Assembly: GCF_037042905.1 (NCBI RefSeq)
Contig: NC_087251.1
Coordinates: 27,840,001 to 27,904,000, forward strand
Length of the DNA: 64,000 nucleotides
Direction of reading: 5' to 3'
Origin: Lytechinus pictus
Lineage: Eukaryota
A program made the translations under genes and the position numbers. Shown here in pieces: positions 1 through 60,200 of this stretch. A model generated the notes under the pieces. It was not told the DNA's origin, did no database searches, and saw only the letters and a program-made list of their open reading frames with translations. Position 1 is the stretch's first letter. Every line of letters starts with the position of its first letter.

Positions 1-80
1 GATAATAGTGCCCGGGCTGACCACCAGAAAAAATAAATGTAGAAAACCGAAAATGAGTAGGTCTAAAACGAATCGTAGGG

Positions 81-491
81 CAGCACACGACACTGGCACT
101 GGTCCGACGGTCCCAGACCAGTAAAAATAGCTGTCGGGCCAGTAACTTTTCAGAAATAGCCAGATTTACTGGTCCAACATGACCAGTAAAAAATATATAT
201 TTTCTCCTCTTTAGTATCTTAAAAAATGTCTTTCCAAAATTGAGAAATGGTTCGCATTAATTGTGTTGTGTGTGTATGTGTGTATTGTTTGTTAGTACGT
301 TTTTTTTTTGGGGGGGGGCAATAAAAACAATAAAAGACAGCAAAATAAACAAGTCTTTTTCATGTTTTTCTTTATTTTTCGGGACCAGTAAATTTTAGAT
401 TCGGACCAGTAAAATATTGAAAAACTGGGTATCTACTGGTCCAACTTGAACAGATTGGACCAGTAGAAAAAAGAGTTAGTGTGGAGCCCTG
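81..491. mobile_element. hAT-like non-autonomous element (MITE)
   Basis: Ends CAG...GTGGAGCCCTG, with multiple internal GGACCAGTA motifs. Flanked directly by CGTAGGG at 74-80 and 492-498 (TSD-like). Left TIR is degenerate. Confidence 0.55.
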
Positions 492-849
492 CGTAGGGAC
501 AGTGATTTTCCGTTTCAGAAAATCGTAAATTCCGTCTTAGCATGTCAGAAAACGGAAATTCCGTTTCCCCATAGACTTTGTGTACACGGAAAATTGGCAA
601 TTCCGTTTACCATTCAGTAGCAATATATCACTCGCGTTGGTCAAAATTTGTATCTGCCACCGTACCCACAACGCAGTAGAATCCGCTCTAATCGGATCTA
701 TGCGGGTACACAAAATATTTAGAAAAACACATTTGACACAAATACACCCTTACCTTTCACATTATTAGCATTATTTTTTTGTTAAATTAATTTTTATCGA
801 TAATTTTGGGGGTTTTTGGACATCGTTTCGACCAGTCAACGACTTTAGC

Positions 850-885
850 CTATCCGCCATTTTGAATTTCAAGACCGGAATATCG
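850..885. promoter_or_regulatory. Candidate promoter (YY1-like CCGCCATTTTG plus ETS-like ACCGGAA)
   Basis: Motif match only; no transcript evidence. Confidence 0.3.
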
Positions 886-1937
886 TGCTGTTACATCTTG
901 AAAAGTAGAGGGCAGCAACACACAACTGTGTTGTTTGCATGTGAATGTTTTCGACACGGCCGACTCGGCCCATTGAACTTGAATAAAGTTAAGTCCTTTC
1001 ATTATAGTATCAAATTCAACGTGTGGTGAGCTTGTTGTGTGTAATTTGGTGATTGAGGACACATTTTGTGATGTTGAGGAATGGACAACTACATGATCAC
1101 TTGTTTATGTTTTGCCTCATCCAAGCCACTTGTGGTTTTGTTCCCACTATTTCTGTAATGTATACTTCTGGGGCCCATTTCATAAAAAGTTGCTATAAAT
1201 TCTTTCGCAGCCAGAGGCTGAACTGTGGAATCTTTTACAAATAAAAAGTATAAACATTACGTAAACATCATAAATAATTACATAATTACACAATGCAAAA
1301 TGAAAATACTAATATGATATCCAAAAACTAACTATGAGTACAGGATATCATGCATTAAAAGAAAACAAATTAAGCACAGAGACTCAGAGTTTACCTTAGA
1401 GTGACATAGAGAAAGGGACAGGGACAGAGAGAGACAGTTACACAGAGGGAGAGAGAGAAACATGGACAGAGAGAAAGAGAAAAGGATCATGAGTAATTTT
1501 TTTAAATCTCCTTTGAAACAAAGGCTTGATTTTGTCCTTTTTAATCTACAGAAAGGTTCCACCAGTAATGTAGTGTTTCACAGCAAACTTACACATACAG
1601 AGTTGATACACTTTACAATTTGTCATGATACAATTTTTTCAATATGCATGTGATGACCACCTAAACTGCCATTTGACTACCTAAAGTTCAGTCCAGGGTG
1701 CCCAGCTGACTTCCAAAAATTCAAGTTAATCGAGAGGCCTGTATACTGTTTTCTCTCTCCTTGAAGGTTAGCAATCTTCATTCCATTTTTCTCATTCCTC
1801 TGGTTTCTCATTAGTGTGTCCTAAATCCATAGATTCGATGTTGCTTGTGCCTGACTGGTGCAATGATCCACTTTAACAGGTTTTGTTTTTCATCCTGCAG
1901 GAGGTCTTAATCCCCCTTCCCACTGGCATAGATGCTT

Positions 1938-1953
1938 CCAGTAGGTGGCGCCA
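1938..1953 (+). promoter_or_regulatory. CTCF-like motif CCAGTAGGTGGCGCCA at the transposon junction
   Basis: Close match to the bilaterian CTCF core consensus CCASYAGRKGGCRS. Binding not shown. Confidence 0.5.
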
Positions 1954-2009
1954 GTTTAGTCGCCGGCGACCCGACTTCTGCCGTCTTGATAAACATATTA
2001 TTCACTGCA

Positions 2010-5000
2010 CTAGTTCTTCTTGGCTTCCTCCTTGTCAGCTTTCAACTTTGCTAGTCGCCGTTCTGACATCGCCTTCCATTCAGCCAAGGGTTGGTTCTGG
2101 GATATCTCGCAATACCAGCTGCCATAATATTGAGTGTGATTCTCTCGATCCCTTGGTTGATGACACTGGCTGCATACAATCGGACCTTTCCGGGGCTTGT
2201 AAACCTTGGTAGAAACCTGTCCTTCTAGTCGTTGCTGTGCCCTGCGCTTCCTGTATGAAAGGGTGGACTTCGGGAGTGATGAAGGTGGTGGTAGACTCGG
2301 TTGTGGTACACTGGGCTGCCAGGTAGGAGGTGTAGACTGGATAGACCGGAATCCAGGGACAGAGACTAGTTGGGGCAGGGGTGGACACATGGGTTGATGG
2401 TATGGCCATTACAGGAACAGGAAGCAGAACAAATGTTGGTTGTGCTATTGGTGCCTTCATCTTTGCCTGACCGACTGTGTTGGAAATCGTCGGAAACTGG
2501 AAGGGCCTTTGGATGGGAGGTGGTGGCAAGGCATGTGGTTTCTCCTTTGGTGGTGGGACAGATCGGTGGGCAGTCATGCTAGGTCTATGTGCTGAAGCTC
2601 CCATCTCCAATGCACTCTTCTCCTCTTCTTTAGATATTCGGTTATGCCTGTACATCGAATAAGAAAAGGATGAGAAAGAAAAATGCCATTAGACAGGCTG
2701 TATTTCATAGGGAGATAGATATTGCTAAAGATACAATCTATGGCTACATTTGAAATACTTTGTAATAACACAGATAAATTTTGTTACAAATAAAATTGTG
2801 ATGCCACTGAATTGCTATCCATGATTCCATATAATTCATTATATTTTAAATTGTCTTTGATTTCAAATCGCTGTATTATTCATATTCAGGGGAATGATGC
2901 CAGGTATGATTCATATACCATATTAATTATCTGTATGTTCCAAAGTATGGAAAAGAATTCAATTCAATAAAAGACATTTCCCAGTGCTCAAAATTTAACT
3001 CATCATACAATATTCTTACCATTGAATGAGGACATGTCGATTGATATCTAACAATTGTAGGCGGGTGTTGGATGTTATGTGGGTGGAGGCCAGGACCCTG
3101 CTTCGAATGTTCTTATAGTCATGGATGATAGTGGTCCACCTGGGAATGACTCTACCTTGGTGCCTCCGGTGCTCTGGGTAGTAGCTGCAGAGTTGACCGA
3201 TGACATACTCCATAACCCTGTTGGCATTGGGCACGGAGGCGGGTCCTGAGTTACTTCCAAGAAAGCATCTGTACGAGGGGAGGACAAAATATACAAAGAT
3301 AGAAAAATATATCAAGAAATCGTGTACAGCACACTTCAACTGCTGGTTGTATTGCTGTAAGTGAAAGTTATAAGGTGATTGATATAAACGAAGAACTGGA
3401 ATGTGATGAATGAAATCCATATCGGCGAGTTGAGAGATACTTCTTTGTTATTCTATTTCTTTGCAAAGTAGACAAGAAGGCTGCTCTTTATTGCATCATG
3501 ATAAATCACCCAGAAAAAATAATAGAGTAGAATGTACATACCTTTGAGTACTCTCTATGCCTGGGAGAACTAGAGATGTTCCTGTGGCTTTGAAGCGTCC
3601 TTTGGTGAGCTTCTCTTGGTGACGGGCCGGGCGTCTCACTTGTTGGTTGTATGGATCCAATTCGTTCCAAAGTTTCACGATCTGTTTGGCGTCCCCGGAG
3701 CTCATCAGATGATCGTCACCTTTGAGTTTGAGGAGGTAGTTACCCAGTGCTTTCACATGGTCGTAACCTGGTCTGCGACCTGTGTGCTCCTCCTGTAAAA
3801 GTAAAATTACAATAAAGAGGACAATGCATATGATGGGATTAACAAAAGAGAATTGCCTAATAGATAAACAATCTATGTCATTTTCAATTGCCATTCATTT
3901 AGCCATCCATTTATAAAATGTCTAGTGATTATAACAGGAACATCAAATAAAAAAAAAAAAAGGGAAACAAATGTTTTTTTTTCAAATGCAAAGTTTGTAT
4001 GTAATACCAGAAACATGATAACATCTTACAATAAATAACTTATTTAAGCCAACTTGTTCTGAATAAAGAAAACAATAACATGGATTCATTTCTTTCCCAT
4101 AGACACTTAAAATGAATCAATCATGCTTATTTCATTATATTTATTTGAAAAAAATATATGAATAAAATAAGCATTATAAAAATAAAAGTTATTTCTCTTA
4201 CGTCAGACTCTTCTCCAAGATCCACATCTTCGACATCCTTCACTTCTTCATCTCCAGCAAGTGTTCCACCATCCGGTGTGTCATCCCTGGGAGAATCAGG
4301 TGCCCGGGAGACAGTTGCTGGTGCTGTGGATGTTCTGTGAATTGAAGTTGGTGGTGGTGAATCTGGAGCACGTGATACTGTTGCCGGTGCCTTGGATGTG
4401 TGGGGTCTGCATCTGGTGGATGGAACCGGCAGTGATGATGATCTCTGTGATCTGTGTTTCTATGGTGTTGCTGTAGATAAAATGAGATAGAAGAAATAAA
4501 AATATTTTCTAATGTTGGGAAGTCACTCAGAAGATTTATTATTGGGTTTTTGCAGGTATATTGAATTGCTATTTAATCTAGCAATGAAGAATACATTGAT
4601 CAAAAAATTGTACAATATCGTACAAAGTAATAAAAAAAGTAAAAGATACAACATGTGTTTGGACTGCAACAACATCTGAGCAGCAGTGTAAGCTCCCAAT
4701 TGTCATGGGGTAAATTGTTGAAGTGAAGCTCGTAGTAATGACTCCCTGAAAATACAATCATTTTGTGCTTTTAAACATAAAAAGAAAAGAAAAGAAAAAT
4801 CGCTGAAAATATAGGAAATACTCACTGCTAACGTGCTGTGGTACTGGTTGCTCGCTTGACACGCTCGAGGCACGTCGGGATGAAGCAGGGCTTACTCCAA
4901 ACTCTGGGGGTGGCTGAGTCGGGTCCTCTACGTCCTCTCCTTCCCGACTTCCTACGTCCTCGCCATCATCTTCTACCTCCCCTTCATCAGGATGCATGGG

Positions 5001-8000
5001 AAGTAGCTCCTCGTTAGTCTGGTTGAAGAGATATTCGAGGCCGATAAGCTCCCCTGTAACGAATAAATTGACAGAAAGAAAGGAATAGAGATCTAGATAA
5101 ATTTTGATCAGCTGGAATTAAAATTGAGAGAACAAACAAAATAGTTCATTTCATCAGTTCATTTCATTTTATATCACATAAACGTTTCTACATTATATTG
5201 ACATACCTCATAGACCATTAGGAGTCATATATGAATGGACTACAATAGAAAAGGCATTGGCATACCTGTGTATTTCTGGGGTGCAGTCAGAGTAGGGTTG
5301 ATCTTAAGTGCGAACAGCTTCTCGGTCAACCGGTTGACATCAAACTCATTGTAGGTGCCATGCGTGAGAAGGCGCAGTGGCAGCTTCAGCATCCCTTGCA
5401 CGATCGCAGTTCCATCTATGTACCCCCTCAAGAAGGTAGGCCTGGAAGTGGACATTGTTGGCTGATGTCCCTGAAAAATGAAATGAACAAAGTATTTTGA
5501 ATGTATTATGAAATGTATCCATCCATCGCCGGTTACTTACAATACACAAATGGAATGTAGACAGAATCCTGTAGAAATAAAGATACTCCAAATAGTTACA
5601 TAGAGGTGAAGAATCAGCATGATCTGACATTGGCAGATTTCATTACACTTGTTTTACAACACACTTTAAGTGATATAAGACATGAACTTACCAGGGATGA
5701 ACTGGTTCATGTGAAGATGGAAGGACTCCAGCGATGTTGAACCTCCAGCACATCATCCCGATAATTTTCTTGTCACAAGCACCTCTGTAGCAAAAAGAAG
5801 AAATTTAGGAATCAGTATATCAGTGCAAATTTCCATCTGTCATAGGGTTTGGAAATATTGCATTTCAAATTACAACCCAGCATGCACCATTTCTATCTGA
5901 AAAGCACTATAGGTTGCAATGAAGTAAAGTATGAGTAATTAAAATTGTATTTATATTGCGCTTAACATGATGTTTCTAAGCGCTTGACAAATAGCATACA
6001 TTAATGTAATTGAACATTTAACAAACAAATTAGGTTAGCAAAGGGCCTACATAAGTTAGGAAATACAAGATAATGATAATAATAAGTCAATGCATTTATT
6101 GATTAAATAGTTTGAATACAATAAGTTAAAGAAATAAATTATCAGAAATACAATGACAAATGACTTTTGTTAGAATAATAAAGCAATGCAAAAGCTATAC
6201 ATAAACAAGAAATACAGGAATATTCTTTGGATATTGACAAGATATTCACTAACCTGTATGTGAGCAACACCGGGAATTGCAGCCGGTGACCGGTGTCCAG
6301 TTGGTCTAAGATGAGCTTGCTCCAACTGATGAACTTCTTGTTACACTTTCTGCATTCCAGGTACTCAGCACCCATGTTGAAGAATCCATCAATGTCCATG
6401 ACCTGTCGCACACCGGTGTAGACACCGGCTGATAACAGCTCCTGACCATTGCATTCTTTGTTGGGACAAAGAATCTTCAATCCCCAAAGCTTGCGAGGCA
6501 TCCACATCAGCAGTTTGGTTGCAAAGTAACGTGCTTGCTTTGGAGCTTGGCCTTGAGCGAAATGTGGTTCACGTGGGTAGAACCAAAGTCTGTTGATCTT
6601 CTGCACGTCAAACTCAGGCTTCCCACGGGCAGACACCTTGAACAAAGCACGTGAAACCCACTGATGATCCTGACGTGGTAGTGTCTGCTTCCACCCTTCG
6701 GTCAGGAGGTTGGGTAGTCTCCTCCGTTTTTCTGGTCACTCGTCTGCAGTGTCGTGCAATCGAGCTCTTTCCAAGGTGCTTCAGGATGATCTCATCAGAA
6801 GTTTCAGCGATGCCTTGGTCCCTGAGTTCACCTCTCTTTTCAGCGATGAGTTGATCCAGGTCATCTGCGCTCCATGCAAAGATGCAGGCTGACAACCGTC
6901 TCAGAAAGAACGGGTAGAGTTGGTGCTCAGTGCTGGTGCATCCTCTAGCAAGCCTCGTCATGAAGTGCTAGACGTCGAGTCGGACAGGCATTTCTGTCCA
7001 CGTACAGAAGCTCTGGTCTAAGTTGGCCGGCTGCTTCATACCGTCTCTGGATGCCCTTGATCATCTCGTAGAGACCGGCTCCATCGCCAACAGTCATCAC
7101 GGACATCAGTACTTGTCCATACTCGTTGCCGATGTTGGTTGCCCAAGCAGCAGTCACTGCTGACTCGCCTCTCAGTTTCCTTGTGATCTGTGATGAAAAG
7201 ATAAATTTTAGAAATGGAATGAATTTCAAGTATCTTATACAATCGTACACATTTATATTACACAGAGAAACAAAGGAAGTAAAGAAACATTGATAAACAG
7301 GAATGAGATTACCATTATTAATCAAAGTCTTAATTGAAAGTCCTTAAAATGTAATGTTTTTGCTGTCAGTCACCACTTAAACCACACAAGCAAGAATAAA
7401 ATAATTCAATGCTTAAAAGTGATTGATTGTTATCAAATGTCCATCACCCATTTTCTTGAATTTTGAAATTATCCATTTTGTTACACATGATCACATTACA
7501 TCAAATGAAAAGCACATTCATGTTCACCTTCTTGGTCGAGTCCATCTTGAGAATACGGCCGAATGTAGATGTGATGCTAGCCTTCACTTCATCGATGCGC
7601 TCCAGCACATCGTTGCAGTACACCGTCAGGAGCCAACGATACGTGGGAAGAGAAGGCATTGCGGGCGGTGGTGGGCAGTTTGGTCAATTGATGAGGCCCC
7701 TTTCACTGGCATTGACGAACTCCTCAACCACAGAACAATAGTGGGCAGTCTTTGCAAGCCAAGCATCGGGGTGGACCTCTTTGAGCTTGCGGATTATCTG
7801 GAATGGTCCGTTGCCAAGTGTCCTGTCCCGCATCATCCCGATAATTTTCTTGTCACAAGCACCTCTGTAGCAAAAAGAAGAAATTTAGGAATCAGTATAT
7901 CAGTGCGAATTTCCATCTGTATAGGGTTTGGAAATATTGCATTTCAAATTACAACCCAGCATGCACCATTTCTATCTGAAAAGCACTATAGGTTGCAATG

Positions 8001-9345
8001 AAGTAAAGTATGAGTAATTAAAATTGTATTTATATTGCGCTTAACATGATATTTCTAAGCGCTTGACAAATAGCATACATTAATATAATTGAACATTTAA
8101 CAAACAAGAAAGGAAATGTAAAGTGTAAAGTATTATCATATTATAAATTAGGTTAGCAAAGGGCCTACTCAAGTTGGGAAATACAAGATAATGATAATAA
8201 TAAGTCAATGACGTTAATGAATTAAATAGTTTGAATACAATAAGTTAAAGAAATAAATTATCAGAAATACAATGACATATGAATTGTGTTAGAATAATAA
8301 AGCAATGCAAAAGCTATACATAAACAAGAAATAAAGGAATATTCTTTGGATATTGACAAGATATTCACTAACCTGTATGTGAGCAACACTGGGAATTGCA
8401 GCCGCTGACCGGTGTCCAGTTGGTCTAAGATGGGCTTGCTCCAACTGATGAACTTCTTGTTACACTTTCTGCATTCCAGGTACTCAGCACCCATGTTAAA
8501 GAATCCATCAATGTCCATGACCTGTCTCACACCAGTGTAGACACCGGCTGATAACAGCTCTGACCGTTGCATTCTTTGTTGGGACAAAGAATCTTAATCC
8601 CCAAAGCTTGCGAGGCATCCACATCAGCAGTTTGGTTGCAAAGTAACGTGCTGGCTTTGGAGCTTGGCCTTGAGCGAAATGTGGTTCACGTGGGTAGAAC
8701 CAAAGTCTGTTGATCTTCTGCATGTCAAACTCAGGCTTCCCACGGGCCGACACCTTGAACAAAGCATGTGAAACCCACTGATGATCCTGACGTGGTAGTG
8801 TCTGCTTCCACCTTCGGTCAGGAGGTACTCGGGGGGAAAAAAAGTCCAAAGAAAATTTTGACGAATATACAGATATTAATCTTTGAAAGAGATTCAAGTC
8901 ACATCATAATAATGTAACATGCTGGTACATTGGAAAATGAAATCAGAAGAATAAAGGAAAATAAAAATAAGGAAAACAATATTTTCTTCTAATAATGTAC
9001 ATGTTATGTTACAGTTATTACATTATCAAGCTACTTCTCTATGTAGGTGTCATCCAATCATTGTTCACACTAATTGCGCAAAAGTTCAATCCTAAATGGC
9101 AGGTGCAAGGGAAGACAGTCTCTACAATAAAAAAACATATGTATTTATTTCAATGCTTTCAAGGTATTCTCAATAATTATATCTAGTGTTGGACTTTATG
9201 AGATTGGTTGCAGTACATATATTTTTGCCATAAGTTGAATGTCCAGACAAGAATGAAAATGTACCATATTTACCTGTCTTATCTCCTTCATCTGCTACTG
9301 CTCTCTTGCAAGTTGAAGTCACTTTTCTTGATGTAGTGGCTTCTA
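2010..9345 (-). pseudogene. Dada-like transposase pseudogene (DUF6729-type CCCC finger, DDE/DxxH core, C-terminal CCHC finger)
   Basis: GT-AG exons 5'->3': ~9345-9274; 8827-8373 (WMPRKLW, CPNKEC..EYLECRKC); 7864-7528 (GACDKK..ILKMDSTKK); 7187-~6712 (TNIGNEYGQVL..LYVDR..RLDV*HFM); ~5752-5692 (GSTSLESFHLH); 5470-5266 (GTSANNVHFQAYLLEG..KYTG); 5053-4826 (ELIGLEYLF); 4470-4202; 3792-3542; 3268-3020; 2647-2010 (CSQC..H..YC). Putative catalytic D 7540-7542, D 6996-6998, E 5726-5728. Nonsense codons at 7684-7686, 6968-6970 and 4460-4462, plus several frameshifts. Confidence 0.85.
5750..6710. repeat. Internal duplicate of 7830-8825 within the transposon
   Basis: Near-identical sequence including the intron and the CCCC-finger exon (ORFs 6142-6645 vs 8261-8897). 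Confidence 0.95.
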
Positions 9346-9757
9346 GTGGGCACTCAAATTATATTTTGATGGGGGTGTGGCTGCCTCACAAAACCCTGAG
9401 GAACTGACAAGAGTAAAATACAGGGTCTTGGGAACTAAATATAGATCTACTCTATTCCAGGCAGCGTGAAAAACAGCGTCTACGTAACGGGATCGCGGTA
9501 CACTAGTGCTATGCATGTATGGGCGCTTACGGTGTTAAGCGGAGGGGGTTGTGAAGGCGAGCATACAGATCTCACTGGACAATTTTGGCAGGGCTAGGCC
9601 TGGGAACTGAGAGGTTTCGTAATGCCTAGGGGTCTTCCGACCGGGGCTGGACGGCATCTAATTAGAACTTTTGTCATTGATTATCTAGAGAACTGAAAAG
9701 GGGGCTCATTCAAAGCGGCCCATCCCCGTACCACCAATATATGTGAGTGCTCCCCGG
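9346..9757. mobile_element. MITE with degenerate GGGCACTCA..ATATT TIRs, interrupting a transposase exon
   Basis: Left end GGGCACTCAAATTATATTTT; right end reverse complement CCGGGGAGCACTCACATATATTGG. Confidence 0.55.
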
Positions 9758-9827
9758 TGGTTTAACTTAATAAGTCAACACGTCCCCCCCCCCCCCTCCC
9801 CCACCATCAAGACTAACGTTAGCCAGA

Positions 9828-9955
9828 GGCTACCTCAAGCGATGTTCGTGTAGGCTCCACTCCACTTCACTACCGCTACATACGTCTACACTCCACCTAG
9901 CGTGTAGCGGTAGTGAAGTGGAATGGAGCCTGCACGAACATCGTTTGAGGTAGCC
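9828..9955. mobile_element. 128-bp hairpin MITE
   Basis: ~53-bp inverted arms GGCTACCTCAA...TTGAGGTAGCC with AGA on both sides. Confidence 0.7.
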
Positions 9956-10539
9956 AGAGGCATGATACTTGAGAGGAGTAGATCTAACGAGTAACGTTAC
10001 TCAGTCAATTCACAGTCAAGCTAAATAAAGACAATCACCTACACACGCCTTCGACACAAATAATGATCTCGGGTAGATATTAATACATCACACACTTAAC
10101 ACTCAATACTTAATCACCGGATTTGGATTAGGCTCCACAGACTGTTACTAGTATTAACTAATCAATAATTCAATCAGAGTTCAAACCAGTTCAACTCATC
10201 ACCACACACGCGTGAAAATCGACCATTGTAATACACGTGAAAAACAATAGCTATCACTTGTCATTGCACTCCAACTGACAAACCGCGACAAACTCGTCAT
10301 ATTTTTCATCAAATTTTTCACTTAATGGTACATCAAAACATAACAAGAGTGATCAAAATTTCTGCATTAACAATCATATCAGCATTCAACACTAATATTG
10401 GCATGAGAAAAGGTAAAATTACCTGTCAAATTGATTGCAGAAGAAGGCCCGCAAAACTTTTGTTCGAAGTTCGAGAGATCTTCGTCAGAAAGCAAAATGC
10501 ATTAGTCGTGGCACATGATCTATGACGTTAAAAGCATCC

Positions 10540-10650
10540 TCTTATAGCAGACAATAGAGACAAAAAGATGCCGAATGGATGCCTTTGATTGGTCGGCTGG
10601 CCCATATCTTGTTCCATTTGTTGGGAAACGCGGCAACATCATTGGCTGCA
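10540..10650 (-). promoter_or_regulatory. Candidate transposon promoter (TATA-like CTATAAG and two CCAAT boxes on the - strand)
   Basis: ATTGG at ~10588 and ~10641 and CTTATAG at 10541. A - strand donor CAG|GTAA at 10423/10422 suggests a non-coding first exon. Confidence 0.4.
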
Positions 10651-11089
10651 GGTTCCAATAAAAATGAAAAAGATTGAGAGGTAGTAGGCGCAATGACTGG
10701 TATAGCTAGCTTGGTGACAAGTGTAATGTAAGTTGAGTGACACCTCAAGGCAGCTGCATTTTTTTTCACATGATGTCATTTAATATAGCTAGTTTCTTTT
10801 ATGTGCAAGCTTTGTATTGAAGGCAACAAATTATACTTGTTTCCAAGATCCAGTAATATATGAAGTTTTTTTTTCCTACTTTTATAATGGATTTGAATCT
10901 AATCCATAGCAGCGAGGTAAGATATATGCAGCAATTGTTGCACAGAACATCAGCTTTTCAAAGCATCATCAACAACAATGCCATTCATATGATATGATGA
11001 AATTACCAATCAATACCTTTGATGAATTTGAGAGTCTTTGTAACACTTAAAATCACTCACAACTCTCTTCTCTTTGTCTTTAATTTCAG

Positions 11090-14000
11090 GCTGCAGAAGG
11101 CAACATTGAGTACAAGGTGAGTTTCTTCTCTACACTTAAAAAAGTCACACCCATGTATAGTAAATCACGTGTTTGTGTTACTATTTCACTGAAGTGTTTG
11201 TTAAGAATGTGTGATTTCCAGGTAGATGCAATATAAAATCGGGAATCCAGTCTGAGCATACATGTATGTAATGTCAATAAAAAGGAGAATTGATAATATG
11301 AGGATTGTTTTAAAGCCTGTTTTCAGCTCAGGTAAAAGATCAGTAATGTGAACTATAATTGAGTTTCATCGAACATGATCCTTCATACCACAACCGTTTT
11401 GAGGCACATGCATTAATGTAAATTAAGTAGAAGAGTGGCATTCCCTTTTTTTTGGGGGGGGGGGGGACTTACCAAAACTAAAGATTGGCTTTTAATATGA
11501 TGTAATAGGATGAAAACAGATACACTTTATATAATTAGTAAATAGTAACATTTGGCTTCTACACTACTGTTGATTTTTATGGAATATAGGAATCTTCAAT
11601 TTACAACATTACACTGAAATTCAAAGGCAACAGAAAGGTAATTTAAACTACATGTGTGGATGGAAATCCCCCCCCCCCCAAAAAAAAAAAAAAAAGAATA
11701 ATAATAATAATAAATAAATGAATAAAATAAATAAATGAAATAAATAAAAAATGAAATAAATGAATGAATAAAATAAATGAATAAAAATAAATAAATGAAT
11801 AAATAAAGTAAAATAAAAATGAATAACTAAAGTAAATACATAAATAAGTGATTAAAAAAATTAGATAATGAAGTGAATAAATATAATAAAAATTGTTAAT
11901 TGATATTAAGAGAAAATAAAATTAGTAAAACAAAACCTTGAATCAGAGTAAAACTGACCAAATCTACCAGCAGTGTAGAGAGTTAAAGTCTTGCAATACA
12001 GAACTGTTGACAATGTGTATTTTATTTCATGTCTGTTATCAACAGATTTTCAACTGCCTTTGTTGTGTTTGCCATTAGATACAGTACGTGTAGTAGTAGT
12101 AGTAAAGAAAATGGTCCAAAAAGTGTTTAGAATATTAAGAGTTTAATTTGCATTTAATAAAACAGAATCTGGGAACTGTATTTTAAATACTATATTATGT
12201 ACAAATGTAACAGAGGCTGTTACAGAGCCCAAATTCAATTAGTTTTCATCTGTTAATGCTCATTGTGTGTGTGTCATGGGTGTTGTTGGTTCCTATGTCC
12301 AGGGTTTGTTTATTATTGTACTGAAGATGATAACAAAAGATAGTTGACTCATCTGGTATTTGGACACATGTCATAGGGTTGTGTAATATACACATGTATA
12401 CAGTTGTGTATGATTGTACGCCTTGCTGGCTTAGGTGTATTATCTTCCTGTGTTATTGGCAGCTGTATCAAGGATTCATTACTGTTATGACTTGAAAAAT
12501 CACAATCATAACTTACCTGTAGCTTGCATTTCAGTGTCAGCTAGCTACACAAAACATATTCTACTGCAATTGAATTCTGCTTGATAGTATTGTCTAGCCT
12601 GCATTATGATTATACATGTAGCAGAAGCAAAATTGAATTGAAATTGAAAATATTTGACATTTCAATGTCGTGAAGTCTAAACGTAAACACTCTTGCTAAT
12701 GTATGTATGACCTGCATGTATATTGTAGTTGTCTAAAATGGCAAGGGGTATCGTTCCTCTTGTTATCGTCATCGTCCTCAGTAATTATTATTGTTTATTT
12801 TTTTCATTGTTATTGTTACAATTATCATTATGTTGAATATTGTGGAATGTATAGCTCAAAAGGCTTAACCCCCCCCCCCCACAGTTTGTTTATATTATTG
12901 TTCACAACAGTCATAACAGAGATGCCTGACTCCACAGGACTTTAACTGGCATTTGGGTCAGATGTCAATGACGTGATCTATAATTGTATAGCTACAGTAT
13001 GACATCCTACCAGGGTGTTGTGCTAATTGTAATCAAAGGTCAACCAGCTGTTTGGGGGGGGGGGCATGTTCAGGCAGTTGGTTCAACCCTGGAGTTTCCT
13101 TGAAAAGCAGAAGTGCGCAACAGCCTCTCTTCTAATAATGCTGCATTATTTTAGCGTGCTTTGAGTTCAAGACATCCGATTAAAAGTGATTAGTACTATA
13201 AGCAAGTATAATATGTACATGTGTCCTCCAAACTCCAAAGTCTCTCATTTTCATGTGGACACATATATCTAACACTACAGTCTATCCCGCGATGCTGTGC
13301 ATGTATCTAAAGCAGAATAAAGATGTCATGCATAGTTCAGTAGTCTTAGAAAGTATTCCCACCAGAAAATTATTACCATAAATGCCTACGACATGTATGT
13401 GTACAGTATGAATTTTGAGCACCCCTTGCATAGTGGCAAAAGGCCAGACCAGATTTTCAGGTGCACAGTGTAATAAAAATCATGTTTGATTTTTAGTATT
13501 CAAATTATTTTTGAATAATTTAAATTATTAATTTGTTAGTCTCTCATGCCCCTGTAATACATCATAGGAAATAAATGAGAGTGACGATGAGTTGCCCAAG
13601 AGACCTGTCACAAACAATATTCTAGAAAATCAATATTCTAACTACACTGTATGGCAGAATAATGGTACTTGCTTTTAGTGCATAATTGCTTGTTACCCCC
13701 AAAAGGTAGCCATGTAAATGAGAGAAATAACCCCCCCCAAAAAAAAAAAAAAAAAAATAATAATAATAATAATAATAATGAATAAATAAAAATAAAATAA
13801 AAAATCTGCAATTGCCCCAATGTTGAAAAAAAAGATAGCCCTCAGAAATAAAGATTATTTCCCACCCTGCTGTAACATAAAAATACAATAAATCATATGA
13901 TTAAGCATACTTATGTAACTCTATGGTGCAAACCGTGATTAAAAAGTTGATACAATCAGTTCTTTATTGTACCTACATAGATTTGCATGTACATGTATAC

Positions 14001-48200: not shown

Positions 48201-51200
48201 ATTAAATACAATATAAAAACATTGAGGAATTTTGCCTCAGGAAAGCTGAAAAAAAAATTATTCATGATTTTTTAAAAGCTGTTACAGACAATCTAATTTG
48301 CAATCAACATTGTTTTTCTTTTCAAAGCGTACTATTACATGTAGGTCTACAGTTTTACTGATTTATTTTAATGATCGTTTTTTTAAATTTCATAAGAAGG
48401 TCATTTTCATCTGTATAATATTATGTAGTTGTGGTAGGTCAGTGGTATAGTGTGAACGTTTTGTAAATAAAGCAGTGTTATTCTAAGTCTGAAACTGAAA
48501 TGGATTGGGGAAAATGGATACATCCTATTTAGCCTTGAACTTGTTGTGTTTCTGGGTCTAGAGGCCTGGCTGAGACATTCAGCAGGGTGCTAATTTCATT
48601 AGCCAAAGACGATCAAGAGATCCGTAAAGAGACAATGAGGAAGTATGTAATTGTGTCACCTACTGCTCTAACTGTTTGATTCCATTATATGTGCATCATG
48701 ATGAATAATCCAAAACATCCAGAAGATGAATTAGGATGGAGGGAGTGGAAGAGAGAGAGAGAGAGCTACATATATCGATAATAAGAGAGACAGAGAGGGA
48801 GGGGGGTGAAGACGGAGGCCAGAGCGTATTGTAGAGTAGAGAGAAGGAAGCAGGGGGGTATGAAGAAGGGCAGAAGAGAAACAAGTGGTGGTGTGAGGGG
48901 TGTAGAAATTAGTGTGACATATTTTTATAAAAGTCTCATTGAAATGAGGCAAGTTGAAGAATGCCGTTAGTCAAGAATATTCTCTTTATCAGGACCATTA
49001 ATTTTTAAAAGGACATGAAGCACGACTCATGTTTCTTATTTTTAAACTGTCAATCAAATTTGCATAGAGTTCAAGAATCAGTCAGTCTAATAAACACACA
49101 AGATATGGGTGAAGATTTTATTAAGTCATTAAAGGTCACCGAAACAGGACTCCATGTAGTTGTAAAGCACTTAAAAGTATTTTCGGACCAGACTCACTTG
49201 AAAACTTGAAATACCTGATATTTTGTGAGTGTGAAAACTACCCTGATGTACCTCAATCAGAAAATGGCAGGTATTGTTGCCAGTGTGGAAGCAAATTACT
49301 TGTAAATACCCCTGAAAATATTCCCTGTTAATTGGTAGTTTTCAAAATTACCACAACTTTGTAGTTCATGAGTATTTACACAGAATTTCTATCCCATCAC
49401 AGTGAGGGCACTTGGGTTGCTGGCTGGCAAAAGAGCATTTCTATTTTTATGAAAGGACTTGTTGGGTGTATATATATATCTGATGTATTCTATAGCCTTG
49501 ATTGCTAATCAGGCCGTACTTGTACTTGCTCAACTTCAAGACTTTACCGTGGAAGAGTCTAGTTTTTTGGTTTGGTATGAATGCCGACAAAAAGTATGGA
49601 GTATTTTGAGGCATGAACATATATTTTCTGTGATTTTACGTCTTCCCTGTTCCTGTTACTGGTCCCTGTAATTGTATCGTTTATCAAATTTTATCATTTC
49701 CTTTTCAGGCAATGCAATTGTGTCTTCAAGGAATATAAGAACTTTGAGCAGCTGAATAGCTTGGTTCAGCTCGTCCTCCGACTTGCAATTAATATCATCT
49801 CTTCGTGGCACCAATCAAGGGAGAACGATGAAGAAGAGCGGAGAAAAGGAAAAGAAGACAAGACAGAGGATCCAGGAAAGGAGGTTAGCGAGACTGACCC
49901 TGGAGCGTCCTGCAAAGAGGACGACACAGAACTGCCTATTGCAGAGGACACTGTCAAAGACAAGTGTGATGATAGTGTGAAAGACAAAGAAAAGAGCAGT
50001 GATGGAACAACTGAAGATGGAAAAACTGGTGATGTGAAAAAGAAGGAGGAGGAGGAAAGGAAAGATGGAAATGAAGAGGGCATGGAGGAAGAGAAGGGTG
50101 TTAACACCACTGAGGATGGGGATGATGTTCCAAGGGATGGTGAGAAGAAGGCGTCCAGGTGTAGAACACCGGAGGAGAGCAATCGTCGGGCGGAAGATGA
50201 GGATTGGACGCAGGAGGAGAAGGAGAGGTTATTGCATCTTGTTGCCAAAGTTTTTCACATGACCTTCCCATTGTATTCAGCACATAAACAGTACTACCAT
50301 GGTGTCACAGATGTAAGTATTATACTTTGTACAATGCTATCAGAAAATCCCTACCAATGACCTATCTACCCAGTTAGGGGTGTGCAGTTGTATCATAGAT
50401 AAATGCAATATTGGTTCATGACAGTAGAAAGTTGAACAAGTGTATTTAAGATCATAATATTTTGGCAAATACAAATAATCGATTGTAATCAATACTCATA
50501 CAACAAGTAAACATAGAATGATATTTTTTAAGAAAAGTGATAAAAAGTTTCATATCTCTTTCCGTTTAACAGGAGCTGTCACCACAAGAATCAGAAGCAC
50601 TGGGAAACTACTGTGACACAAATGTAAGTTATGTTATCGTCTAAGGGAGTGTTGCAAGGAAATGACCTGTTATCAGTGGCGAAAATTGGATGCAAATTAT
50701 AGAACAAATTTAAGTTGAGTGAATGAATTCAATCCTTTATGGCAATTAGCAGAGCTGTGAGTGTTTCACAAACGTTGACTGAATTGCACTAAAATCCCAA
50801 GTTGTGTGAGGTATATAATGCATCAATACATTGGTCAGATCCCGCTCATATGTACATGTATGCTGTCCTTTATTCAAAGATGCCCCTTTGTGAAACAGCC
50901 CCAGAAATCAGTTGCAAGATTAAAAATTGGTTTGGGTACCTACAGTTGCTTGCAAAAATTATAGATAACATATTAATCATATGGAGTCTACCGTTAAAAG
51001 ATACCTTATTGTATTGAATAGTTAATTCATCGTATAGGCATTGAAACATTTGTTTGGTACAGGTGCAGGAATTGAGGGGGAAAATTCCATGATTGTCAGT
51101 ACAGTTGAAGTTTATATTGTTTGTGTTTTTTCTCCTTTTTTTAGGATTTAGATGTCAGTCTCCATCTATTGCGGAATGTATGTTTCTTCTGTGACAGCAA

Positions 51201-54200: not shown

Positions 54201-57200
54201 AAATGGACACTTTGTTAAAGTGACAAGAAATTAAGGGTAATTTTTGCAAATGTCCTTTCTAGTTCATGTTCAAGTGCTGCAGTGTAAAATATTCTTTCAC
54301 ACTTATACAGCCTTTTTTGTTCATTCTTTTGAAGTCGAGTGAGCGCATTCTTTGTGGAAATCAGTGTTGTTTAACTCTTCCATTTGCAATTTCCCTAAGC
54401 AATCTAACTTTACTGAAATTTTAAGAAAATTACTCATGCTACCAAGATGTGTTGTCAATTTGCTGCATGTAGCAAACAAATGAGGTAATATCATAGTGGC
54501 TGAGCGAACATACTTGAAATTAATATCAGAAATGATACCTGGATCATTTCACTGGTAATATTGTATTGAAATGACTCTTGTGACTGAACTTCTACATAAC
54601 TCGATGGGTCAATCTCATTTTGACACAGCAGTTAGATGATAGGTGTAAGAAAACTCCTACCAACTTATTTTTCAGAAAAGCAGTTGATTTTATGGTTGAT
54701 TGCTAAATTTCCTGTTTATTTCCTTTGTTATCTTTATTTTTTCTAACATATGCTCTTGATATTAGTCATTCTATCTCATGTTACAAAATATAAACATTTT
54801 TCTTTGATTGAATCCATTTCAAAAGGATAATTTTTTTATCGTATATGCTGTGCTTTAAAAATTGCCAGAGATTTTGTAATCACACCATAAGATTTATATA
54901 TATATACATATGTATATATATATATCTTTTATTACAAGTATGAATTTTTCATGTTTTGTGTAAAAATGAGGTGATTGTACGAATTCTTATATACTTGTAA
55001 GTGTGGAAAAGACTAGAATAGTTTTGCTCTGTGTTTATTGGATGGATGAAGTAGATACTAACTGATTAGTGCTGTGATATGGTTATTTCCAATTCTGTTT
55101 AATGAAGAGTAAAATTGGATGGTTTAATTTACGCAGCATAAAAAAACATTGGCACAAATTTTCTTTTGTGGGACCAGTCATAAATCAAGGGAGACCTGCT
55201 TCGTAACATGGGAACTCTACTTTTAGGGACATGGAAAGTAAAGATTATCAGTTGGTAAAAACTTATACTTACATGAATATTTAATAGAGTTTTATACCCT
55301 GCCCTATCTGCTTTTATTTTCATGATTAACCATTTTATTTCCTGACAAAACTTTAAATTAGCTATCAGCTACATCCAGAGTAAGACTTGTGACAGGGATT
55401 TGTTCTTGAAACAAGCAGGAACTGTGCTAGTAAGCACCTTCATTTTCTGAGATTGGATCAAAGTAACAAGTTTAGATCTGGCATTTCATGTCAGACCATC
55501 TGTAACAAATTACACTTTTGAAGTGATTTGTTTTAAAGTATATCTTTTCCTTGTTCTTTTCTTTTTAATAGCTGAGGATGTGGCTGCACTTACATGCCAT
55601 CATGCAATTTGTTGTCCCCCTGAGAACTCACATAATAAGGTAAGTCAAAGGTCATATCCATATGACCTCAAGGTCAAATTGATTAGGCCAAACTCACTGC
55701 TGTACCCCCAGAGGCCTGTCATGCAATTTCATTGAATCCACCAAAGTTAAAGGAAACCAAAACCCAGAAGAGAAGCAATCTTATTGGTAAGAGTAAAATG
55801 AGAGGAACAATTTTTTAAAGTTTCATCAAAATTGGTTATGAAATAAGCAAGTTATGGACGTTTAAAAAGTCTTGTTGTACTTTCTATGGGGATCCTCAAA
55901 TTGGCAAACGTCCTTCAAAATGGCTGATTTTGTAGACAACTCTCCCATTTGTTTTGTTCACAAATTTTCAGATTTCCCCTTTATTTTACATATTTCACAT
56001 TATCTCCTCCTGACATTGGCATATGTGGTGTGAATTATATTTTCCCATGATACATGTTGTGCTCAGAAGGAGGCAAGATGCAATTTGAAAGATAATGAGG
56101 AAAAATTGAAAATTTGTGTACAAAACAAATGGAGAGTTGTCCACAAAATCAGCCATTTTGAAGTACGTTTGCCAATTTGAGGATCCCCATAGAAACTACA
56201 ACAAGAGTTTTCAAACTCCCATAACTTGTTTATTTCATAACCGATTTTGATGAAACTTTTTTTAATTGTTCCTCTCATTTTACTCTTTCCAATAAGATTG
56301 CTTCTCTTCTTGGGTTTTGGTTTCCTTTAATTTCTTTTAGGTAATTGAATACACTCTCATCAAAGAATTTCAAAGTGCAAATAAAACTCTAGAGGTGAAA
56401 GGTCATTGTTGTTTAATTGCCTTTATGTGTTTAACAATTTTCTAAATCAAATTTTAAATTAAATTTTTAGATTTCATGCAGTGTGTTTTATGATGATATT
56501 TCTGTGTATCTTAAATTAAGTACAGGTATTTAATATAATGATAAAGATATAAGTTGCAAAGAAAAGCCAAAATTAAAAGATTTATAAAACTTGAGACAAG
56601 GTTAAACATAGTGGCTTCCAGCCCTCACCTTGTTTAACTTCCGATTATTCAGTGCATATGGATGATTGAAATGGTGAGAGCAAATCACTTGTTTCCGCTG
56701 TTATGTCTTCTTAAATGTCATTTTGGAGTCAATGCGTGGGAGGGAGCAAAGAATGTCTCATGTTAATGTACATGACTTCCCCCCGCCCTATATATCTCAG
56801 TCTGACCTTGTTATCAAAGAAAATACAGGTAATGGACTTTAATGTTTGATTAGAAATCAAGAAGGACCCAAATGATACAATTAGCAATGCAATTTAATTA
56901 AATAGAGTATCAAATTGTATGTTATTTCATAATTAATGGTGCAAATTGAAGTAGTTTCCTATCTCACACTTTTTAATATGTGTGCTTGAAACATAACACT
57001 AATCTTTGAGGGGACTTGTTTGATGACCTAAAGTCTTTTGTTCTAGAGGATTTCTTCACCAAGTAGGGGATTCTCCCATCTGTATTCATATTATGAGTCA
57101 CCATAGACTTGTGGGACTGATTAAGCTCTGAGTAGGATCATCCAGTTCTATTTCTGCCGAGGCTGGGGTAGCCCAAACTTTTTTAAAGATGTTTTTACAA

Positions 57201-60200
57201 AGGACATTTTTCTATGTGGATCCCACCTATAGATATCTGTGTAAGTTGCCCGACAAGGAGCTTCGAGGAAATGGAGCTCGGCACATGGCTGATATGATGT
57301 GGAGCGCCATCAAGGAGCCAGTAGAGAGCCCTCTATGTTTCGATCAGGACAGTCTGGAGCTTGCTTTCAAGTTTTTCACATCGGCTACCCTCACCATGAG
57401 GCTAACTGGCTTAGGTCAAATCACTGTAAGTTTTTCCAGGTGTTTTCTAATGTATCAATATCTTTTAAGCATCAATTTAAAGTCTACAACTATAATTTTG
57501 CCTATTCTCAATAATCAGCAGTCAAGAAATAATTGTGATTAAGAATAATATATATACACTAGTAATCGAAACTAATTAATCTCTGAATTTAACAGTTATC
57601 TCATCATATGCAATTAATTTAGTTGTTTTTGTTTTAATATCTCTTTAAATATCTCCTCTTTCTTTCTCTCTCTCTCTCTTTCCTTGTCTTTCTCTATCTT
57701 CAACCATTTTCTCTTTCTGTTTGTCAATATCTATTTCTGTCTTGCTATTTTCAGAATCAAATCCATATGTTCAACGAGGTTTATCACAATGAATCAGTCA
57801 CGGATGTAGAAAAGTAAGTCCACTCTTCCTCATTCTTCATACTCTTGAGCTGAGTACTTAGAATTAAACCCTTTCATTCCTGAATTCTGTAATTCCCACA
57901 GGCTTTGTAAGGGAACCACCCGGTTTCAGTAGACAACTGGTTAACATTTGGTTCTTGATATCCAGGCAGACAAATGAAAACATTTTATTTCCTTGTAATT
58001 TATAAAATGTGATTTAAAATGTTAAATTGTATAATTCCATCTCAGTGTTTTTAATTTCTGATCCTACCTCATTTTTTTTGTGCTCAGTCATATTTTATAG
58101 TTCAATTCTACAGTCAAACCTGTACACAAAGACTGACCAAGGGAGACAAGGAAAATGGTCTTTATGAACGGGTGACGTTTGTAGACAGGTCCCTGTAATA
58201 CAAAAATTGGGAATACTGTTGTTGGAAAACCCAAATTAACGTCTGTATAGATGAGTTGTCTTTCTATTCAGGTGGTCACTAGAGCAGGTTTGACTTTATT
58301 ATGAGATGGCTTATTTGTTTGTTTCATTGTATCCCAAATTAGCCTTAGTGCTTTTATGTATGATGGAAATTTCAGATGATAATTGATATTTGGCTGAAAT
58401 TTTACAAACCTTCCACTCTTTAAAATAGAATATTCTGTGTCATATTTCTTTTGCAGTATGGGCTCTGAACTGACAAAATGGCTGCTAGAGAGGGAAATCG
58501 TTGAGCATATATTTGGTCCCAATATGCATGTGGAGGTGAGAGGCAATAGCTTAAGATAACATGAAGCAATAGCTTAAGATCAACAATTAACATGAGTCTG
58601 ACTTGTTATGAATAAAATAAAGCTTAGAATTTCCAAGTGTTTTTCTCACCGTTGCCTATTAAAGATTTTTGTGGGGCAGTAGTCCACAGCTGAGAACATT
58701 CTATGAAAAAAATGAAATTGAACAGAATTTACCACTTAATTTAGTTTATTTCAATTACCTCTATTACACAATATTCAGTTTTAAACCTTAAATCATTAAC
58801 TAAACAAGCATTAGTTGTGAATACATTTGGTTGCATTATATTTTGCTTAAGGCGGTAAAACAGTTGTAAAGAAGCAATTATTTGTGAAAACTTAAGACTA
58901 TAGATTACATTTTTGGTTATAAACATATCATGATTTAGTAAGCTTACTTCATGAATAAAGCATTATATTGTTGACCCAGGATTTTTTTGTGTAGCCTGTA
59001 GACTTCCTTATATTTCTGAATTGAGGGAGAGGATATGAACTTCAACATTTCCAATTGTGTGATCTGATTTTCCTATTTTTGCGTAAGAAATGGCTCCAGT
59101 GACTTTTGAAAATTTACTATGTTGTCTTAAATGGATACTCACTCAATCTTGACTTGACATACTGGAGTGTTGTGGCCCAGTGGATAAGTCTCTGGACTTT
59201 GAAACAGAGGGTCGTGGATTCTAATCCCAGCCATGGCGTAATTTCCTTCGGCAAGAAATTTATCCACATTGTGCTGCACTCAACCCTGGTGAGGTGAATG
59301 GGTACCTGGCAGGAATTTATTCCTTGAAATGCATGTGCGCTGTAATCTTAGTAATTATGGCTGCCAAGCTACAGCTGGGGTAATAATATCCAAGTCCTTT
59401 GGAAGCGCATAGAGACATTATTCATAATTCTGATTTGCGCTATACAAAAACTATATTATTATTGTTATTAATCAAATTGTTCGATAGGTAGTCGATGGGT
59501 ATAGGATCACTCCTGCCAAATTATTTTAATGAAATATGTTGAAAAGATGTGGGTTTCGTAAAAGGGGGGGGGGTAATTCTTGGCGTATTTAAAATCAACA
59601 ACATAGACCCTACTTAAAGCAGAATTTTCAATTATAAGCTCTTGTCTGATTTCAGATTATCAAGCAATGCCAGGTGATCCTGAATTTCCTTGCTAGTGAC
59701 GGCGCCCTCACCCTAAAGCACCTGGACACCGTGTGGGCGGCGGCCCAGCTGAAGCATTCTGGTCGCTACGTCCACGATCTCTTCCCCCATCTCATCAAAC
59801 ATCTTGAATCGCGTCCCCTTCTCCATCTCATGCAGCTGGTCTCTAAACTCCATCCATCTGAACACACTGAACAGGTAAGTAGGGAAATGTATGAGATATC
59901 GTATCATGGTGTGTTTAGATGAATTGTTATTCTTAAGTTTTATCATATCAATGAGTACTAATCACTGAACGTTCTTGATATGCAGCAGCCATCAGAACAC
60001 TCCTCGTAGACCAGTGAAGAAAAGATTGAAAAGCTTTGGAAGGAAAGAAAAGAAGAAATTTGAACTATCTTGTACAGCTGATTTCTGATCTGGAGTTTAT
60101 TGTAGGGTTAGGGGATGGGCTATGATTAACCCTATGAACCCGATAGGCCGGAATACCAGCCTTCCAGTGAACGTGCATATACCTGATGGGTTCTAAATGT

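Follow-up and report, generated by a model that had tools for sequence, protein, structure and literature searches.

The window analyzed here is a stretch of 64,000 nucleotides (nt) from the forward strand of Lytechinus pictus contig NC_087251.1 (C7; positions 27,840,001 to 27,904,000), and its left part contains a copy of a DNA transposon for which an initial annotation had proposed a Dada-like identity and insertion into a CTCF-type motif. By every feature tested, the transposon family belongs to the Dada-U6 lineage, in which the window copy represents a degenerate member lying off target. Window positions 1742–10693 very probably constitute the right two thirds of a Dada-U6 copy that is old and dead. 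The assignment to the Dada superfamily, including the recognition of GCGCAA as a Dada-type end, was correct; the CTCF-like motif is cargo within the element, not its target.

The identity of the family was established from sister copies elsewhere in the genome. A search with window positions 1938–2140 returned three near-full matches with 94–97% identity, two on C21 and one on C7; copy counts from the genome search are lower bounds. The three sister copies match the window copy on the right up to position 10696 and stay alike for more than 1.3 kb to the left of the point equivalent to 1742. In each of them, a 5′ fragment of a U6 small nuclear RNA (snRNA) gene was detected with the Rfam model 2.4 kb to the left of that point, comprising model positions 1–68 (Rfam numbering) and scoring 70.6 bits against a gathering score of 44. 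The left U6 part ends ...CCCCTGCGCAA directly at the left end of the element in all three other full-length copies, and at the right end GCGCAA is followed by the U6 3′ part, GGATGACACGCAAAATCGTGAAGCGTTCCATATTTTT. For the C21 copy, the sequence across the left junction is ...GATTAGCATGGCCCCTGCGCAA / AAGCTACCGACTAATCTTCTCTG... and that across the right junction ...TGAAAAAGATTGAGATGTAGCAG GCGCAA GGATGACACGCAAAATCGTGAAGCGTTCCATATTTTT; the element between the two GCGCAA hexamers measures 13,044 bp. Insertion into U6 with GCGCAA on both sides is hence the arrangement of three of the three other full-length copies, and not that of the window copy.

The position within U6 has been used repeatedly. 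The copy at C7:27792226–27805084 and the C21 copies reside in different U6 loci. Outside the element, their similarity is confined to the U6 gene and closely adjoining sequence, amounting to 83% across 299 nt of left flank and 92% across 125 nt of right flank. The flanks of the two C21 copies, in contrast, are 94–95% identical for kilobases, so that these two represent a segmental duplication. Insertion at this U6 position thus occurred independently at least twice. Among themselves, the U6-resident elements are 96–97% alike. At least eight uninterrupted U6 genes are present in the genome (48 candidates scored).

Other relatives of the element were observed in the course of these searches. A diverged copy with 81–84% identity lies at C18:14796815–14837831 and C18:14849201–14849307; its right-hand region has been amplified into at least five tandem units of about 1.1 kb, and 11 kb from it lies the U6 gene with the highest score in the genome (117 bits). 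A further, heavily deleted Dada-U6 fragment occupies C7:27910585–27913616, 6.5 kb past the end of the window, and has an exact left terminus, AAGCTACCCACTAATCTTCTCTG, adjoining non-U6 sequence. Contig C7 therefore carries three Dada-U6 copies within 120 kb, one of them in U6 and two outside.

The element ends are marked by sub-terminal motifs. An exact TCTTCTCTG stands near the left end of the C21 copy, 14 nt away from GCGCAA, and this sequence is also present in the left end of the window copy and in the C7:27910585 fragment. On the right, the motif TGAAAAAGA (10665–10673, plus strand), a 7/9 match to the CAGAGAAGA reported for Dada-U6, precedes GCGCAA by 14 nt in all four copies. The hexamer itself, which corresponds to U6 nt 65–70 and to the "target-site duplication" of Dada-U6, is located at 10688–10693 (plus strand) and is found only at the right end of the window copy. 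In agreement with the initial annotation, no terminal inverted repeats (TIRs) were found around the region.

The window copy retains a transposase pseudogene, organized in about 12 exon-like blocks on the minus strand (2013–9343), as delineated by tblastn with its closest homologue, P0001. A DUF6729 domain (PF20499) was detected at 6142–6735 with an E value of 3e-53, and the pseudogene keeps this DUF6729 region with a CCCC zinc finger at the N terminus, the residues of the DDE motif, and, at the C terminus, the CCHC finger. It is damaged by two in-frame stop codons, one of which replaces the tryptophan of DxWH, and by a frameshift after the second aspartate; one exon is duplicated, and amino acids 1–163 and 627–694 of the closest homologue are missing. 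The closest full-length proteins are uncharacterized proteins of sea urchins (Lytechinus), with 76–78% identity over the DUF6729 exon, followed by proteins of Diadema and Ptychodera; the proteins matched carry PF20499. In P0001, the N-terminal finger C-x4-C-x32-C-x2-C is formed by C269, C274, C307, and C310, the catalytic motif by D448, D516, D538xxH, and E703, and the C-terminal CCHC finger C-x2-C-x8-H-x8-C by C1143, C1146, H1155, and C1164. D448, D516, D538, and E703 are invariant in all five homologues compared, and the spacing of 68 between the first two aspartates equals that of Dada-U6_DR (D567 and D635), as given in PMC3706591. In copies oriented alike, the transposase exons lie on the minus strand and the U6 fragments on the plus strand, so that the transposase is antisense to U6.

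A literature search on DUF6729 returned nothing. KDZ/Zisupton identity, a candidate raised by a weak CxC5 match (PF18718, E value 0.04, 14.5 bits against a cut-off of 26.9), was rejected, and no KDZ domain was found in the window at the Pfam threshold.

These properties can be compared with published Dada elements. In Kojima and Jurka 2013 (PMC3706591), Dada-U6 elements are described as lying between U6 positions 1–70 and 65–104, with a 6-bp duplication (GCGCAA or GCGAAA), without TIRs, and with a 9-bp sub-terminal TCTTCTCTG that is mirrored by CAGAGAAGA and spaced as CAGAGAAGA is in U6. The paper places the transposase opposite to U6 in all hosts but Capitella, and it defines the superfamily by a DDE transposase in which DxxH follows the second aspartate and which has a finger of the CCCC type at the N terminus and one of the CCHC type at the C terminus. 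The sea urchin family is alike in the U6 site, the GCGCAA on both sides, the lack of TIRs, and the placement of TCTTCTCTG 14 nt from the hexamer. Also shared are the antisense transposase with introns, its CCCC, DDE/DxxH, and CCHC motifs, the D–D spacing of 68, and the occurrence of occasional copies with non-U6 flanks. The family differs in that its right sub-terminal motif is degenerate (7/9) and in its host, a sea urchin, which stands outside the four phyla (Chordata, Arthropoda, Mollusca, as well as Annelida) that this paper and Kojima 2022 (PMC8869645) give as hosts. The window copy differs further by having non-U6 sequence at both ends, a situation that the 2013 paper says was never seen. 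Among the papers listed in a search on Dada transposons of sea urchins, judged by titles and abstracts, none appears to describe a sea urchin Dada-U6 family, and sea urchin genome papers apparently mention Dada only in passing, once each. Dada-U6 by name was found in only three papers.

Within the window, the Dada-U6 copy occupies positions 1742–10687, its right-hand 8.9 kb, and is 86–91% identical to the C21 copy over 1742–5754, 6709–9345, and 9346–10696. The left remainder, equivalent to the 2.4-kb part of the sister copies, is located at C7:27836056–27839924; it starts 3.9 kb upstream of the window and is 77–88% identical to the C21 copy. Including a nested repeat, the whole copy spans 14,632 bp. 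An identity to C21 of only 77–91%, compared to 96–97% among the U6-resident copies, indicates that the window copy is older and dead. The left boundary had initially been set at 1941, where the end of the reading frame was taken for the end of the element; this was wrong, as the sister copies align unbroken from 1742 and the remainder lies upstream of the window. The right boundary was essentially correct, with BLAST homology of the family stopping at 10696. Comparison with the U6-flanked copies places the end of the element proper at 10687, followed by the hexamer.

The repeat that splits the copy is an unrelated, high-copy sequence at window positions 1–1741. It starts 76 nt before window position 1 (C7:27839925), has a length of 1,817 nt with one TATA counted, and has the ends CAGGGC.../...GGCCTG. 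TATA(C), 4–5 bp long, flanks the repeat and occurs once in the uninterrupted C21 copy. Of 41 genome matches to window positions 1500–1960, one is the window itself; 37 are confined to sequence on the left side of about 1745, and three, those of the Dada copies, to sequence from 1742 on. Two other rearrangements distinguish the window copy. Positions 5751–6710 are a displaced internal duplicate of about 7831–8812, 89–99% identical, which provides a second DUF6729 exon; C21 positions 8828–9806 match both segments, and the spacing of the duplicate families is about 2.1 kb. At 9345–9346, a deletion breakpoint marks the absence of 2.47 kb relative to C21 (reference 10359–12827), by which the exon for amino acids 1–163 was lost.

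The true flanks of the window copy are two halves of a miniature inverted-repeat transposable element (MITE). The left flank ends with the left 72 nt of a 130-bp Tc1-like MITE that is intact at many loci, where it shows a TA duplication and the ends CAGTACCAGTCACC.../...GGTGACTGGTACTG. On the right, positions 10694–10704 (plus strand) hold a remnant of the right end of the MITE, TGACTGGTA plus TA; where the MITE is intact, its terminal sequence is ...TGTGACTGGTACTG, adjoined by TA. The MITE identity of this right flank rests on 9 nt plus TA, and a repeat search with positions 10688–11100 gave, apart from the self match, five weak matches, none of them at the junction. The initial observation that the window copy has no recognizable snRNA or transfer RNA (tRNA) flank was borne out by tRNA, Rfam, and U6 searches, which yielded no tRNA genes and no Rfam families at gathering score in the window and no U6 at E≤1 within positions 1–14000.

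The MITE contains CAGAGAACA, which agrees with the U6/Dada box in 8 of 9 positions, and the left junction follows it after 19 nt, compared to 20 nt in U6. A match of at least 8/9 to this a priori motif within ±5 nt of the canonical distance is found at 0.17% of random window positions. A 22-nt stretch, picked post hoc, agrees with U6 in 15 of 22 positions, a value reached by 1 of 20,000 random positions.

Based on these data, a simple model would suggest the following. The Dada-U6 DDE transposase would recognize the U6 snRNA gene and insert the element at nt 65–70, leaving GCGCAA on both sides, a mode of insertion to which the anatomy of the sister copies and Kojima and Jurka 2013 both point. 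The window copy would have integrated off target into a MITE, perhaps aided by the U6-like CAGAGAACA, and one GCGCAA would have travelled along from the old site at the right end. Aberrant off-target integration with the old hexamer carried at one end is the reading we favor, tentatively and at somewhat less than even probability. Held a shade less firmly is its stricter form, that the window copy may be a genuine transposition product, its left end joined next to the U6-like MITE sequence CAGAGAACA...TGGTCC, at nearly the canonical distance, and the old GCGCAA carried on the right.

A precedent for such carriage may be provided by Dada-tA. According to Kojima 2022 (PMC8869645), the reverse complement of GCGCAA replaces target sequence in that family, sometimes on one side only, and the author concludes that the Dada duplication is not always made and that flanking sequence can move along. 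The window copy is alike in showing a one-sided GCGCAA at a foreign site. It differs in that the feature is regular there, in a tRNA-Ala-specific family, whereas here it is seen in a single degenerate copy in a MITE with a 46-nt deletion.

Several observations weigh against this reading of the window copy as an off-target Dada-U6 element. The window copy lacks the defining placement in U6, no such gene having been found in the adjoining 1.5 kb on its left and 3.3 kb on its right. At the ends of the element, no MITE sequence is duplicated, and 46 nt of the MITE are missing, which indicates that transposition, if it occurred, was not clean. Compared to U6, the U6-like stretch is 4 nt closer to the left junction, and the AAG with which the element should start is absent or changed. 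An unbiased comparison of the 40 nt of target upstream of the junction gave 18 of 40 matches, which is marginal (p = 0.044), and the other non-U6 left junction, at C7:27910585, shows no likeness to U6 (10/22 and 6/9). As to the lineage itself, the 13,044-bp C21 element exceeds the reported maximum of the 2013 length range (4,666–10,979 bp in PMC3706591), and the predicted Dada membership of the protein is judged only by motif order and spacing against the description in that paper.

The main alternative is that a U6-resident copy, together with a few nucleotides of U6 flank, was pasted into a broken MITE by host double-strand break repair or microhomology recombination. Such pasting would explain why no target duplication is present, why 46 nt of the MITE were deleted, and why GCGCAA is found on one side only. 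A TGAC at the right junction, possibly a microhomology that the 3′ flank of U6 (GCGCAAGGATGAC) has in common with the end of the MITE (TGTGACTGG), is consistent with it, as are the presence of a U6-resident copy only 31 kb away on the same contig and the marginal outcome of the 40-nt U6-mimicry test. The left junction argues otherwise: it is clean MITE sequence up to the end region of the element, with no U6 nucleotides kept, and it lies beside the 8/9 a priori motif near the canonical distance (p ~0.002). One-sided carriage of the hexamer, moreover, is described for Dada transposition in PMC8869645. Repair pasting is a serious contender with perhaps one chance in three, and off-target integration is favored over it.

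The CTCF-like motif that had suggested a different target was examined in the context of the sister copies. The 15-mer CCAGTAGGTGGCGCC (1938–1952, plus strand) is the sole match in the window to the pattern used, which we take to represent the vertebrate CTCF core and which was chosen after sight of the sequence. It lies about 2.6 kb from the true left terminus and about 60 nt past the transposase stop codon at 2013. The 15-mer is identical, with matching flanks on both sides, in all three full sister copies; in the C21 reference it is at position 3737, the element there starting at 1122, and the diverged C18 copy carries it with 13 of 15 positions identical. Genome-wide, the pattern has 157 matches compared to 23 for the reversed control, an approximately 7-fold difference.

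A reading that the motif is a working binding site, an insulator or boundary carried by Dada-U6, would draw on this enrichment and on the unchanged state of the motif in four of four subfamily copies, while its surroundings show small insertions or deletions, 6 nt away on the upstream side and about 50 nt away on the downstream side. The copies, however, are 91–97% alike overall, so that an unchanged 15-mer carries little weight, and the pattern, that of vertebrate CTCF, was picked post hoc. As a prediction from sequence, a functional element-borne site is improbable. Binding sites for CTCF borne by transposons are known, for example in the mammalian short interspersed nuclear element B2. The present case is alike in that a CTCF-type motif lies within a mobile element and is copied along with it; it differs in the small number of copies, only 4–5 here, and in concerning a predicted motif that is not a target site.

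The proposal of the initial annotation, a Dada family homing to CTCF sites with an element at 1954–10680 whose removal restores the motif from the joined flanks, is rejected as virtually impossible: the perfect match to the core pattern at 1938–1952 (0 in 100 window shuffles) and the missing U6 or tRNA flanks of the window copy fit it, but in all copies the repeat unit includes the motif together with 190 nt or more on its left side, the true left end of the window copy is 5.9 kb further to the left than supposed, the sister copies interrupt U6 genes, and of only 157 matches to the pattern genome-wide, 4 are Dada copies. The flanks of the three other full-length copies proved to be U6 gene parts at both ends and not a CTCF-type motif. 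The two 13-mers thought to bracket the element, GTAGGTGGCGCCA at 1941–1953 and GTAGTAGGCGCAA at 10681–10693, are indeed 10/13 identical, yet no more alike than chance would give. When up to 3 mismatches are tolerated, the window contains 9 matches to the right 13-mer, compared to 6.99 ± 2.51 expected from dinucleotide-preserving shuffles, and at least 9 matches were reached in 26 of 100 shuffles. The CCAGT/ACTGG pair described as framing the motif combines an element-internal motif with the remnant of the MITE end. A class of CTCF-site targets does not exist here, and the striking claim of a DNA transposon homing to such sites is removed.

Additional features were noted in the non-coding parts of the element. 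A hairpin with 53-nt arms, 94% complementary, occupies 9828–9955 in the right non-coding part and is conserved in the sister copies; its identification as mir-885 was rejected, as its 37–40 bits fall short of the gathering score of 66. Every Dada-U6 copy examined contains weak matches to the twister ribozyme model of type P1 (24.4–28.4 bits against a gathering score of 67.2); they lie in the non-coding part on the transposase-sense strand and have GGUCCCAAGCCC and GAGGG cores. The match belonging to the window copy is at C7:27838527–27838595 on the minus strand, some 1.4 kb before the start of the window. In the left non-coding part of the C21 copy, about 220 bp (L042:1754–1972) have more than 100 genome matches with 70–87% identity, many of them in tandem arrays, of which C9:17.53 Mb, C10:23.96 Mb, and C18:21.66 Mb are examples. 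A satellite-like repeat has been taken up, or seeded, by the Dada-U6 element. Outside the element, long open frames at window positions 49617–50360 and 57132–57542 (plus strand) are candidate host-gene exons; both have conserved-looking segments, and the first includes an acidic low-complexity stretch.

What is left after removal of the CTCF claim is modest: a Dada-U6 family in a sea urchin, together with a rare copy that has foreign sequence at both ends and bears weakly on target recognition and on whether the hexamer is duplicated or carried. For annotation, it is important to note that a Dada element does not stop where its transposase reading frame does, as such elements have kilobases of non-coding DNA on one side. 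If the proposed off-target integration is true, the one-sided "target-site duplication" of the window copy would have been carried with the element and not newly made, and the transposase would recognize sequence that lies upstream of the cut in U6, among it the CAGAGAAGA box, about which Kojima and Jurka only speculated. On the same condition, the sea urchin family would extend the Dada-U6 lineage to a fifth animal phylum.

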